In this document: piece by piece, positions 38,271-40,706 of the stretch
Numbering within the stretch: position 1 is the stretch's first letter
Layout: each line of letters opens with the position of its first letter
IMG/VR virus record: IMGVR_UViG_3300027754_005796
Location: 64,001-128,000 of that record
Direction: 5' to 3' (one strand)
Source: a virus
Length of the DNA: 64,000 bases
Position numbers and translations under genes: made by a program
The notes under the pieces: generated by a model
What the model was told of the DNA's origin: nothing
Databases searched by the model: none
What the model saw: the letters and a program-made list of their open reading frames with translations, nothing else

Positions 38271-38380
38271 TTTGAGATTTTAAATTAAATTACCCGAAAT
38301 TTGCTTTAGTCACTTTGGCATTATGCACATATTATAGCATCAAAAATATTTTTTGGTAGGACAATAATACATATAATAGT

Positions 38381-39148
38381 ATGTCCTACTATTGGTGTCT
38401 CATGTATAGAAGTAAAATCTGGTCTATTCCAACCGAAAAATTCAATGAACTTGTTTCAAACTCCACATCTATTGGTCAAATATTAAAGCATTTTGGACTT
38501 AGCAATAAAGGTGGGAATAGCAAGACGGTTCAGAGAAGGGCGCAAATTGAAAATATTGACATCTCACATATAAAGCTAGGTATTAATTCAAACAAAGGAA
38601 GAGTTTTTGGTCATAGAAAAAACCATGATGAAATTTTCAAGGAAAATTCGTCTACTTCAAGAGGAAGTATAAAAGCAAAATTAATAAAATATAACTTGAT
38701 ACCATATGTTTGTAAAATTTGTGGACTTGGAGATAAATGGAATGGTAAAGATATTGCATTACAACTAGATCATGAAAATGGAATTCCAAATGACAACAGA
38801 ATAAAAAATTTAAGGTTTTTGTGTCCTAATTGCCATAGTCAAACTGAAACATTTTCCGGCAAAAGAAATCATGAGTTTATCATTCGTAAAAACAAAGAAT
38901 TGTTAAACCTCAATTGTCAGTATTGCAATATTGTTTTTAAAACATCAAATAATAAGAAAAAATATTGTAGTAAAAGTTGTGTTTCAAAAAAAAGAAAAAA
39001 TAATATTTGTTTAGATAAAAAAACACTAGAGAAAGAAGTTGAGGTGTGCTCAAATATAAAAATTGGAGAAAAATATGGGGTTTCTGAAGCTACTGTAAGA
39101 AATTGGTTAAAGAAATTTGATATTGATCGTAAACAAAAAATTAAATAA
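38381..39148 (+). CDS. Free-standing HNH homing endonuclease with C-terminal HTH
   Basis: CKICG, LQLDHENG..NDNRIKNLRFLCPNCHSQT, IGEKYGVSEATVRNW; lower GC than flanks. Confidence 0.92.
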   Translation: MSYYWCLMYRSKIWSIPTEKFNELVSNSTSIGQILKHFGLSNKGGNSKTVQRRAQIENIDISHIKLGINSNKGRVFGHRKNHDEIFKENSSTSRGSIKAKLIKYNLIPYVCKICGLGDKWNGKDIALQLDHENGIPNDNRIKNLRFLCPNCHSQTETFSGKRNHEFIIRKNKELLNLNCQYCNIVFKTSNNKKKYCSKSCVSKKRKNNICLDKKTLEKEVEVCSNIKIGEKYGVSEATVRNWLKKFDIDRKQKIK

Positions 39149-39152
39149 GAAA

Positions 39153-39296
39153 ATGCCCGAACAGGACTCGAACCTGTACAAAGAGTGCCATTCCGGGCTA
39201 AAGGAATCGAACCTTTATTTCTTGCTTAGAGCAGGCGTTTTGACCGCTTTAAACTAAGCCCGTAAAACTCTTGTGCTACCATTACACTATCGGGCA
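39153..39296 (-). tRNA. trnQ: tRNA-Gln (predicted UUG) split in the anticodon by a 73-nt tRNA-like insert
   Basis: 5' exon 39296-39264 TGCCCGA-TA-GTGT-AATGGTA-GCAC-A-AGAGT-TTT; 3' exon 39190-39153 TGGC-ACTCT-TTGT-ACAGG-TTCGAGT-CCTGT-TCGGGCA-T; all stems pair. Confidence 0.85.
39191..39263 (-). tRNA. Nested tRNA-like element with degenerate anticodon arm (CTA in loop)
   Basis: ACGGGCT-TA-GTTT-AAAGCGGTCA-AAAC-G-CCTGC-TCTAA-GCAAG-AAAT-AAAGG-TTCGATT-CCTTT-AGCCCGG-AA. Confidence 0.8.
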
Positions 39297-39304
39297 GTCA
39301 TTAA

Positions 39305-39334
39305 ATTGTAAGCGTTAGCTTGACAAATTATCAA
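39305..39334 (-). promoter_or_regulatory. Sigma-70 promoter for the nested tRNA
   Basis: TTGATA-18 nt-TACAAT on minus strand, ending 8 nt before the tRNA 5' end. Confidence 0.65.
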
Positions 39335-39348
39335 CAGTAATTTATACT
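39320..39348 (+). promoter_or_regulatory. Sigma-70 promoter for tRNA-Arg
   Basis: TTGACA-17 nt-TATACT. Confidence 0.8.
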
Positions 39349-39362
39349 TTTTTTTGTTAGCT

Positions 39363-39444
39363 GTCGCTGACTCAGAATTGGATACTGAACTGGTCTTCTA
39401 AACCAGCGGTGAAAACCATGTGGGTTCGAGTCCCACCAGCGACA
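39363..39444 (+). tRNA. trnR: tRNA-Arg(UCU) with long variable arm
   Basis: GTCGCTG/CAGCGAC acceptor, TCAG/CTGA D-stem, CTGGT-CTTCTAA-ACCAG, variable arm GGT-GAAA-ACC, GTGGG-TTCGAGT-CCCAC; no CCA. Confidence 0.88.
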
Positions 39445-39660
39445 TTATTCAATGATTCCATAGTGTTTAGCCCACTTGCGAATTGCGTTATCAGAAACAT
39501 CGTACATTTTTGCAATTTGCGTGTATGCAGTAGTGGCTATAAGTTGTTCAAGTTCATTTTTTGTAGGCAGGTTCGGAATTTTGCTCTTGCACTTTTTGCG
39601 AGAAATGTCAAAGTAACGCCTGTCACAGCAGGAGTTAGTCATGTCCGAAGAGCAAATCAA
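39445..39660 (-). pseudogene. HTH-only protein or remnant of an HNH homing endonuclease C-terminus
   Basis: PTKNELEQLI...TQIAKMYDVSDNAIRKWAKHYGI resembles the tail of the HNH at 38381. Confidence 0.55.
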
Positions 39661-39901
39661 ATTAAAGGCTGTTTGTCAATTTGCTCAAAGGAAAGATTAT
39701 TCAACGCTTTTGCGTCGAATAGATTCTCATGGGGCACATGCAGACGATCCTAGCTATGTGTATTGCGACTTTTGCGGTACTCCCACCGAAGCTCTGACTG
39801 CGGATTCGGTTTTTAAGACTCATTCTGTGTGCAGTCAATGCTCTGGTTTGCAGGAAAAAGGTTGGTTGGAAGATGCAATTGCTCACCACGAGGGACTGTG
39901 A
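39641..39901 (+). CDS. Small zinc-ribbon protein
   Basis: CDFC...CSQC; AGGAG RBS. Confidence 0.55.
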   Translation: MSEEQIKLKAVCQFAQRKDYSTLLRRIDSHGAHADDPSYVYCDFCGTPTEALTADSVFKTHSVCSQCSGLQEKGWLEDAIAHHEGL

Positions 39902-40137
39902 TGGCTGACGCAAATAAAATTCAACAACAAGCTTTCTATATTATTGGAATCGTGACGCTCCTTCTTGTTATAATGGTGCTGGCTTGGCCTATTCAGTTTT
40001 TGTGGAATTCTGTATTGATCAGCGCATTGTCTTGTTGCCGAGAAATTACCTACTGGCAAGCTGTGGGATTTGAGGTTTTTGTATTCATTTTGGGCCGTAT
40101 TTTTAATATGAATGCAAATATTCCGAAAAATGATTGA
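39901..40137 (+). CDS. Small membrane protein
   Basis: LWN...ITYWQAVG pattern, hydrophobic helices. Confidence 0.6.
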   Translation: MADANKIQQQAFYIIGIVTLLLVIMVLAWPIQFLWNSVLISALSCCREITYWQAVGFEVFVFILGRIFNMNANIPKND

Positions 40138-40221
40138 TATTTCGTTGGTGGCATGCTTTCTGACCGAAAATAATTTTTAAATACTGTCCATGAAAAACTC
40201 TGCAATTTTCTATATAATTTA

Positions 40222-40638
40222 ATGGATAAAATCCCGTCTTTTGAGCAATTTGTTTTATTGAAAGAAGGCAACACTCGTAGTGCCTTGAAAACTTTGCTGT
40301 ATCCACTTGGATACGGCGGTTTGGGCAATTATCCTCCGTTGCACTTTATTCCTAAAGCTGCCGATGCAATTTTGTACATTTCCAAGGATGAACGCCTGTT
40401 CTGTAACGGCGATGGTCCCCCTTGGGATATCAGTCATCTTCCCGGTCATAAACAATACGGCGACAAGATTAACAACGGCGAGGGAGAGCCCTACGACATC
40501 CGTGACCTTCCCGGCAAAACTATTGAACCCAAACCCACAGATGTCCCCGGCAATGTCGTTGCTCCCCGTGGGTTTGTGCGGCTGATTCAAAAGGTGAAGT
40601 GCCTTAAAGAAAAACCTCAAAGATTGATTCCAGACTGA
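40222..40638 (+). CDS. Hypothetical protein (possible internal head protein)
   Basis: SFEQFVLLKE N-terminus; internal PWDI.HLPG/PYDI.DLPG repeat. Confidence 0.6.
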   Translation: MDKIPSFEQFVLLKEGNTRSALKTLLYPLGYGGLGNYPPLHFIPKAADAILYISKDERLFCNGDGPPWDISHLPGHKQYGDKINNGEGEPYDIRDLPGKTIEPKPTDVPGNVVAPRGFVRLIQKVKCLKEKPQRLIPD

Positions 40639-40706
40639 TGTTAAACTTCAATGATTACATCGAGGCAAGTTATAGGGATCAGCCGCCTAAAAGGAGAAGA
40701 AGATGA
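40638..40706 (+). CDS. 22-aa basic micro-peptide MLNFNDYIEASYRDQPPKRRRR
   Basis: TGATG overlap upstream and ATGA overlap downstream. Confidence 0.45.
   Translation: MLNFNDYIEASYRDQPPKRRRR

Follow-up and report, generated by a model that had tools for sequence, protein, structure and literature searches.

A tRNA-shaped insert in the anticodon of a phage tRNA-Gln gene and its possible removal from the transcript

We analysed a 64,000-nucleotide (nt) stretch of DNA, hereafter the window, which comprises bases 64001-128000 of the 172.8-kb IMG/VR record IMGVR_UViG_3300027754_005796. On its minus strand, a tRNA-Gln(UUG) gene is interrupted within the anticodon by a 73-nt insert that is itself shaped like a tRNA. 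The 144-nt split architecture, its exact boundaries, an allelic series, an RNA ligase gene, and an endonuclease neighbor are all established; excision of the insert and ligation of the two halves are what we infer from them. We estimate a probability of about 45% that the insert is a tRNA-shaped intervening sequence of a rare non-ribozyme class, which would be cut by the enzymes of tRNA end-processing and resealed by a phage ligase of the T4 Rnl1 type. The source record was judged to be a fragment of a jumbo phage, ~40% complete. With ~60% of the phage genome unsampled, absences from the 172.8 kb are therefore weak, and most genes in the sampled part have no family assignment. The window is present in freshwater metagenome runs, of which 24 were found; none of these is listed as an RNA data set, which speaks neither for nor against transcription.

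The split tRNA-Gln gene and its insert

The split gene and its promoter consist of the following parts:

39296-39153, minus strand: the split tRNA-Gln(UUG) unit, 144 nt
39264..39296, minus strand: 5′ half of tRNA-Gln(UUG), with the acceptor 5′ strand, D arm, anticodon-stem 5′ strand, and loop nucleotides 32-34
39191..39263, minus strand: the tRNA-shaped insert, 73 nt (Rfam and ARAGORN; boundaries from an uninterrupted homolog)
39153..39190, minus strand: 3′ half of tRNA-Gln(UUG), with loop nucleotides 35-38, anticodon-stem 3′ strand, variable region, T arm, acceptor 3′ strand, and discriminator U
39305..39334, minus strand: sigma-70-like promoter of the split gene, TTGATA-18-TACAAT (consensus scan; strain alignment)

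Taken alone, the halves (33 nt before the insert and 38 nt after it) are called as nothing by ARAGORN or Rfam. Joined, 39296-39264 and 39190-39153 form a 71-nt tRNA-Gln(UUG) with a U1-A72 pair in ARAGORN. All 21 stem pairs of the joined form are intact, as are all 12 pairs between the halves, and its anticodon loop is UUUUGGC. Across the junction it is colinear with 15 other phage tRNA-Gln genes, and the 5′ half is assigned on this colinearity, on the ARAGORN call of the joined halves, and on homology to the unsplit gene of a related strain (L150, described below). The 3′ half has no encoded CCA and is followed by a U-rich tract. The insert lies between positions 34 and 35, inside the anticodon, and no outer nucleotide is lost or duplicated. 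In intron mode, ARAGORN recovers this outer gene and an intron of 73 nt, but sets the junction in another register. In the predicted minimum free energy fold of the 144 nt, one cloverleaf is nested in the anticodon stem of another, and the two halves together are predicted to form a cloverleaf of −24.9 kcal/mol. As a control, 73-nt deletions were made at random sites in the phage genome, and a junction-spanning tRNA arose in 0/40,000. Shifted deletions were unsuitable as a control, because in an array they fuse neighboring tRNAs into chimeric ones.

The insert was called as a tRNA by both ARAGORN and Rfam, at 39191/2-39263/4 on the minus strand. Against RF00005 it scores 45.2 bits (cut-off 29), with model positions 1-71 matched in full. 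Its acceptor stem has 6 bp beneath an A1.G72 mismatch, and it ends in A73-A74 with no CCA. The core is kept, with an intact D arm, U8, A14, A15/U48, G18-G19, A21, and a T-arm loop of UUCGAUU. The parts that end-processing enzymes read, namely the acceptor stem, T arm, and elbow, are thus retained, and the 5′ end of the insert is the exact +1 of the inner cloverleaf, i.e., the RNase P site. The anticodon arm is defective: a regular 5-bp stem with a 7-nt loop is lacking, and Rfam aligns a 5-nt loop (UCUAA) with a C-A mismatch in the stem.

An earlier note on this DNA, written from the letters alone, had described a tRNA nested inside a tRNA whose inner anticodon arm was degraded. The tRNA calls on the insert, the joined form, and the intron mode, together with the fold, bear out this architecture and every structural statement made about it, including the degraded arm. 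A promoter-like site that corresponds to the sigma-70 promoter placed just upstream by the note was also found: TTGATA-18-TACAAT, which stops 8 nt short of the gene and is conserved in the split strains and in the unsplit strain.

Alleles, neighboring genes, and other nested tRNAs

Related strains were retrieved via the protein cluster of a neighboring 2OG-oxygenase. The comparison of the split unit used strains L153, L154, and L222 (split) and L150 (unsplit), and contigs X2 and X5. Identical sequence is present in the independent contigs X2 (38988-40700) and X5 (39159-39478); contig cover of the stretch by X4 and X5 is patchy. The 144-mer is identical in L153 and L154, whose flanks are 93.5% identical to the window. 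It is also identical in L222, which has the short tRNA-Arg allele, 7 changes among the 58 upstream promoter bases, and an unrelated downstream flank. At least three other strain backgrounds therefore carry the split unit, with flanks that diverge by 6-12%.

In strain L150, the same promoter precedes a 71-nt tRNA-Gln(UUG) without an insert, and the flanks are 93.4% identical to the window. The anticodon loop of this gene, UUUUGGC, is identical to that of the joined halves. The insert is thus fixed as exactly 39263-39191, between positions 34 and 35, and the junction proposed in the earlier note, in which removal of 39191-39263 restores UUUUGGC, is backed by a natural homolog. The presence of UUUUGGC in an unsplit gene also shows it to be the functional loop of this tRNA lineage. 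The L150 gene differs from the joined halves at 17/71 positions, and is a diverged allele rather than a precise empty site. Ten of these differences lie in five stem pairs in which both bases changed and pairing was kept: 2-71, 5-68, 29-41, 49-65, and 50-64 (standard tRNA numbering). Covariation, a check that the earlier note had suggested, was found between the unsplit and split genes but not within the split alleles, and the split copies are identical rather than decaying.

A 21-nt remnant of the window-type tRNA-Gln persists in L150 (L150:8500-8650, minus strand), 75 nt downstream of that strain's own gene. It consists of the 3′ side of the T arm and the acceptor 3′ strand, with one mismatch, and its persistence indicates that one tRNA-Gln gene displaced another in L150. 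A dead copy looks different from the split gene, which is pristine beside this decayed remnant. No significant remnant of the inner piece was found in the L150 spacer.

In L222, identity ends exactly at the borders of the split gene. The tRNA-Arg genes of L150 and L222 differ at 4/72 positions, including one compensated pair in the T stem. The L222 border and the tRNA-Arg changes lean toward either selection or transfer as a precise cassette, between which the choice is undecided.

A BLASTN search with the locus found no match in 50,697 phage records. Patterns for the exact junction, for Gln-specific nesting, and for the inner piece had no match in IMG/VR or in JGI metagenome contigs, scans that possibly did not take in the window's own records. 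No IMG/VR relatives were found via the HNH protein described below or via a 967-aa (amino acid) neighbor protein. In a related strain, L149, a gene for peptidyl-tRNA hydrolase (PTH2) lies ~5.9 kb downstream of the 967-aa gene.

A ligase that could join the halves is encoded in the same record:

G000:C1:132564-133658, outside the window: T4 Rnl1-type RNA ligase, 364 aa (PF09511; 2C5U alignment)

The gene lies ~4.6 kb past the window end and 93 kb from the tRNA gene. Its product scores 59.5 bits against PF09511 (RNA_lig_T4_1; cut-off 28.3) and aligns to residues 54-344 of T4 Rnl1 (2C5U) with an E-value of 2e−23. Motifs I (KxDG), IV (EGYV), and V (KxK) are aligned and conserved. It directly follows a sigma-70-like gene with regions 2 and 4 (G000:C1:131575-133658 for the two). 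Pnkp domains, RtcB, a CCA-adding enzyme, and RNase Z were not found in the sampled 172.8 kb.

The split gene is flanked by the following features:

38381..39148, plus strand: free-standing HNH homing endonuclease, 255 aa (PHROG 10822, E 6e−47; Pfam HNH and HTH)
39362..39445, plus strand: divergent tRNA-Arg(UCU), 84 nt (tRNA calls; promoter TTGACA-17-TATACT at 39320-39348)
39445..39660, minus strand: C-terminal (HTH) remnant of a second HNH endonuclease (PHROG 15471 and 10822, C-terminal part only)

The HNH gene and the split gene are convergent, with 4 nt between the end of the former and the 3′ end of the tRNA. The matches of its product to the Pfam HNH and C-terminal HTH models fall just below the cut-offs. 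An intact copy is absent in L154, and unrelated ORFs (open reading frames) stand in its place in L153, L151, and the X3 contig. As its presence varies by strain, the gene behaves like a free-standing homing endonuclease. The region beside the split tRNA is a hot spot for insertion (38304-39079 vs. L154:8577-8582, L153:8835-9989, and L151:8679-9974). The window has the HNH gene at this place and L154 has nothing; L153 and the X3 contig have a 384-aa ORF there, and in L151 the ORF is one of 431 aa. Neither ORF has a Pfam or PHROG match. The last 69 nt of the HNH gene are kept in strains that do not have the remainder.

The promoter-like sites of the split gene and of tRNA-Arg are divergent and overlap. 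The window tRNA-Arg(UCU) has a 12-nt extra arm in its variable region, a GGU-GAAA-ACC hairpin, and L150 and L222 have an unrelated-looking 72-nt tRNA-Arg(UCU) at the same place. The remnant of the second HNH endonuclease abuts tRNA-Arg, and the frames upstream of it are broken. Within 39445-40700, ~1 kb after the remnant has no open minus-strand frame, the plus-strand ORFs are short (86-138 aa), and G+C reaches 0.53 near 40400-40600. Elsewhere in the record, a tmRNA (transfer-messenger RNA) with the tag DETVHALAA is encoded outside the window at G000:C1:50266-50616.

Further nested tRNAs were sought in IMG/VR by scanning for two T arms 18-45 nt apart, deleting each detected tRNA, and re-running ARAGORN. 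Three were found among ~1,750 phage tRNAs; a search for other tRNA-in-anticodon-loop genes had been raised in the earlier note. At one locus, L069:4970-5135 (IMGVR_UViG_3300018430_000106), in an unrelated phage, a canonical tRNA-Phe(GAA) sits inside a perfect tRNA-Arg(UCU), again between positions 34 and 35. The insert consists of tRNA-Phe positions 1-76 with an ACCC tail, and the outer tRNA-Arg has an encoded CCA. The junction is unique, as the loop CUUCUAA is present in all 120 of the 120 uninterrupted homologs fetched. L069 is part of a 12-tRNA array with no other Arg or Phe gene, and at a distance of 3.5 kb there is an HNH gene fragment that shares its PHROG families with the HNH genes of the window. 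The split tRNA-Gln and L069 are the two well-defined cases. In both, the insert begins at the exact +1 of the inner tRNA, and it runs 1 and 3 nt, respectively, beyond the discriminator.

The other two nestings fit less well. In L041:4995-5170, a tRNA-Ile(GAU) with CCA lies in the anticodon loop of an outer tRNA whose 7-bp acceptor stem is perfect. Removal of the tRNA-Ile does not cleanly restore the outer loop, as 9-10 nt are left over, and the outer tRNA type is not assignable. In L103:6610-6790, a tRNA-Arg(CCU) interrupts an outer tRNA-like gene in its variable region. L103 comes from a complete 252-kb record, which encodes an Rnl1 and two Rnl2-like genes.

The scan also returned >120 phage contigs (IMG/VR loci L029-L214) with a pair of T-arm motifs at this spacing of 18-45 nt. 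Almost every one is a normal tRNA plus a free-standing T-arm/acceptor minihelix and not a nesting, and these minihelices may be attachment-site duplicates or tRNA-like processing signals. Six loci were rejected as nestings (L078, L111, L117, L047, L162, and L186), as each is really a tRNA followed by a T-arm minihelix, and matches to a Gln D-arm-to-T-arm pattern were mostly tandem tRNAs. Two loci from sample 3300045988 (L014:1474-1584 and L020:1251-1361) encode a Gln-type tRNA with all four stems paired and an anticodon-loop insert of ~55-61 nt. This insert, whose boundaries are approximate, resembles a long hairpin and not a tRNA.

A possible route of excision and joining, and its rivals

If the tRNA-Gln is spliced, one 144-nt precursor would be made from the promoter. 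Host RNase P would cut at the 5′ junction and leave a 3′-OH on the 5′ half, and an RNase Z-like enzyme would cut at the 3′ junction and leave a 5′-phosphate on the 3′ half. The halves would be held together by their 12 shared base pairs, while the phage Rnl1 would seal the anticodon loop, where a 3′-OH and a 5′-phosphate would make an Rnl1 substrate. The predicted products are a 71-nt tRNA-Gln(UUG) with the loop UUUUGGC and a free tRNA-like RNA. The lack of a detected Pnkp in a record that is only ~40% complete fits a ligase that is supplied with 3′-OH and 5′-P ends. At the DNA level, the insert may be a selfish element that travels with the adjacent HNH endonuclease, or shields the site from it, in the style of collaborative homing. 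The split unit is a single identical haplotype on diverged strain backgrounds, beside a homing endonuclease gene. Of the route that the earlier note had proposed, with RNase P and RNase Z to cut and a ligase to join the halves, the structure and the junction stand, and an Rnl1 with motifs I, IV, and V is present; the RNA steps are inferred, and a canonical 3′ cut would be off by one nt.

Several points weigh against splicing by this route. RNase Z canonically cleaves behind the discriminator, here A73, so that A74 would stay with the 3′ half and the loop would have 8 nt; the caveat about one extra A that had been raised earlier still stands. Restoration of UUUUGGC would need a cut one nt further, and in L069 the cut would have to fall after the CCC tail; because the 3′ tails differ, no single known enzyme rule fits both genes. 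The block without a single difference among window-type strains spans flanks that are presumably neutral (39080-39590). Recent horizontal spread would suffice to explain this identity, which is thus not proof of selection on the outer halves. With a single split haplotype known, the split alleles show no covariation among themselves, and the compensatory differences from L150 may have arisen before the insert arrived. As phage tRNAs are dispensable, the phage could also tolerate the loss of this tRNA-Gln. Rnl1 is common in jumbo phages, where it serves tRNA repair, and among the three records with other nested tRNAs an RNA ligase was found only in the complete one.

A more general proposal is tentative, and we would sooner doubt it than rely on it. 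Large phages may have a third route of tRNA splicing, in which a mobile tRNA-shaped intron would be cut by cellular end-processing enzymes and the halves joined by phage Rnl1, with neither a ribozyme nor a splicing endonuclease. Splicing would then be a native job of Rnl1, and the insert would shield the gene from the HNH endonuclease, so that both would spread together.

The best-placed alternative involves no splicing at all. A tRNA-shaped or tRNA-derived piece of DNA may have killed a dispensable tRNA-Gln gene, possibly via gene conversion driven by the homing endonuclease. The locus would then yield the inner RNA and two halves, and the outer gene would look perfect since the event is recent. 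Only one split haplotype is known, and its identity reaches into the presumably neutral flanks in three of the four backgrounds, as a recent event would have it. The locus is also a hot spot of rearrangement, with the HNH gene present, absent, or replaced and the L150 gene displaced to leave a 21-nt remnant. The failure of canonical RNase P and RNase Z cuts to give a 7-nt loop, and the L041 outer loop that cannot be cleanly restored, point the same way. Accidental insertion does not, however, readily account for the exact placement of the insert or for a recoverable 7-nt loop that is identical to that of the unsplit homolog. The same position and an exact fit recur in the unrelated phage of L069, and in L222 identity stops at the gene borders. 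Nor could the insert stand in for the tRNA that it interrupts, as its anticodon arm is different and defective and does not decode Gln; it also has no hairpins at its flanks. On balance, we consider loss of the gene a real possibility, if not a likely one.

The insert may instead be removed, and the halves joined, by other enzymes. A dedicated phage nuclease, or one that cuts after a short 3′ tail, could recognize the L-shaped insert. The 3′ boundaries 1 nt (tRNA-Gln) and 3 nt (L069) past the discriminator are not the canonical RNase Z site and favor such an enzyme, for which the unsampled ~60% of the genome and the many genes without a family leave ample room. In both genes, however, the 5′ boundary is exactly where RNase P would cut. 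The sampled 172.8 kb yielded no candidate for such a nuclease, and the missing RNase Z-like and CCA-adding genes give this explanation no help either. We regard it as improbable.

A reading still harder to sustain makes the inner cloverleaf an amber-suppressor tRNA(CUA) and the true product of the locus, with the split tRNA-Gln a mere processing scaffold or a leader and trailer. ARAGORN reads a 7-nt loop CUCUAAG in the insert, with anticodon CUA, U33, and A37, and a single base separates CUA from CUG, an anticodon for Gln. Suppressor tRNAs are frequent in large phages with recoded UAG (Devoto et al., 2019; PMC6784885). This reading of the loop, however, comes at the cost of an anticodon stem with 2/5 non-pairs and no nucleotide 26, whereas Rfam aligns the 5-nt loop. 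Recoding of UAG was considered and rejected on the ~40% of the genome sampled, where TAG ends 28/189 long ORFs and TAG-joined ORF pairs are fewer than those joined by TGA or TAA. No relative of the insert was found among 1,232 phage tRNAs, and the 15 exact matches of its D-arm 18-mer in a genome collection of 185,579 species include none inside a tRNA and are chance matches. Given the poor anticodon arm and the lack of UAG recoding, the insert is therefore better described as a tRNA-shaped element than as a working suppressor.

The source is a metagenome assembly, but a chimera with a nesting that exists in no real molecule, which the earlier note had named as a concern, is next to impossible, because identical junctions occur in independent contigs of other strain backgrounds from separate samples, studies, and assemblers (Logan, ENA, JGI).

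Known systems and significance

The closest precedent is in the Lak megaphages, gut Prevotella phages that use code 15, in whose tRNAs Devoto et al. (2019; Nat Microbiol, PMC6784885) described "enigmatic" non-ribozyme introns for which a mechanism was neither proposed nor tested. One of these, in tRNA-Thr(UGU), was predicted to be a tRNA itself; it is identical across cohorts, and intron-less alleles exist (PMC6784885). The statement in the earlier note that phage tRNA introns are group I or II ribozymes is therefore out of date. Literature searches on nested tRNAs or a tRNA within a tRNA found nothing beyond that study. Thus, the nested architecture is rare but not unprecedented, and only the splicing route is undescribed; full-text searches for a route via RNase P, RNase Z, and a ligase found nothing, in agreement with the earlier note. 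Compared by description, the Lak introns and the insert studied here are alike in being short anticodon-loop inserts in a phage tRNA that match no ribozyme family; the one in Lak tRNA-Thr(UGU) is also like the insert in its predicted tRNA fold and its identity across genomes. They differ in that the phage with the split tRNA-Gln is from freshwater and has no signal of UAG recoding, and in that its tRNA is for Gln, not Thr. The split tRNA-Gln locus adds an Rnl1, an adjacent free-standing HNH gene, and an allelic series. The kind of element is known but barely described, and the features of its own here are a full-size cloverleaf, the lack of CCA, a free-standing HNH neighbor, and an Rnl1 with no detected Pnkp.

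Group I introns occur in the anticodon loops of bacterial and phage tRNAs, e.g., the cyanobacterial and plastid tRNA-Leu(UAA), where they also lie between positions 34 and 35, are polymorphic for presence, and are associated with homing endonucleases. The split tRNA-Gln shares the site and the association with a homing endonuclease, and, to judge by the diverged unsplit allele of L150, probably the polymorphism. The catalytic core of a group I intron (P3-P9) usually takes at least 200 nt, whereas the insert is too short for it at 73 nt and folds as a tRNA, not a ribozyme. A group I intron was rejected on this length, and no intron family was matched by the insert at E ≤ 10 or across the window at the gathering threshold.

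Archaeal and eukaryal tRNA introns are marked by a bulge-helix-bulge (two 3-nt bulges and a 4-bp helix), cut by EndA, and joined by RtcB or Trl1, via ends with a 2′,3′-cyclic phosphate and a 5′-OH. The intron of archaeal tRNA-Trp encodes a C/D box RNA. As proposed here, the insert would resemble them in being cut by proteins and joined by a ligase, and in that the excised intron may double as a functional structured RNA. Bacteria, to our knowledge, have no EndA. A bulge-helix-bulge intron was rejected because the predicted fold runs the outer anticodon stem directly into the inner acceptor stem with no such motif; the predicted ends, 3′-OH and 5′-P, also differ, and RtcB was not found in the sampled 172.8 kb.

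Cuts by RNase P and RNase Z within longer transcripts are directed by tRNA-like signals that have no decoding role, e.g., in mitochondrial tRNA punctuation, the mascRNA of MALAT1, and the tRNA-microRNA precursors of murine gammaherpesvirus 68. In these systems the flanks are released and not religated, whereas in the split tRNA-Gln the flanks are the halves of another tRNA. In phage T4, Pnkp and Rnl1 repair the anticodon-loop breaks made by PrrC, a host defense nuclease, and healing of the ends by Pnkp is needed. The likeness lies in an Rnl1-family ligase, with KxDG, EGYV, and KxK kept in the homolog, that would seal a nick in an anticodon loop. The proposed break would differ in being self-inflicted by processing, with no need of healing.

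In collaborative homing, a free-standing endonuclease works with an intron that has no endonuclease of its own, as in cyanophage psbA with F-CphI and Aeh1 nrdA with MobE; T4 SegB is encoded in a tRNA cluster. The split tRNA-Gln likewise has a free-standing endonuclease gene beside a gene with a small insert, and the split allele is unchanged across strains. It differs in that L222 has the insert and no HNH remnant of any kind.

The locus is a good test case, with a 144-nt precursor under its own promoter, a known ligase gene, natural split and unsplit alleles, and a neighboring homing endonuclease with which to study the spread of the insert. If the tRNA is not spliced, it is an example of homing-endonuclease traffic that wrecks and replaces phage tRNA genes. 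If it is spliced as proposed, this would be protein-only tRNA splicing in the bacterial world, assembled from housekeeping enzymes and a phage ligase, and would give T4-type RNA ligase 1 a role beyond the repair of damage by defense nucleases.

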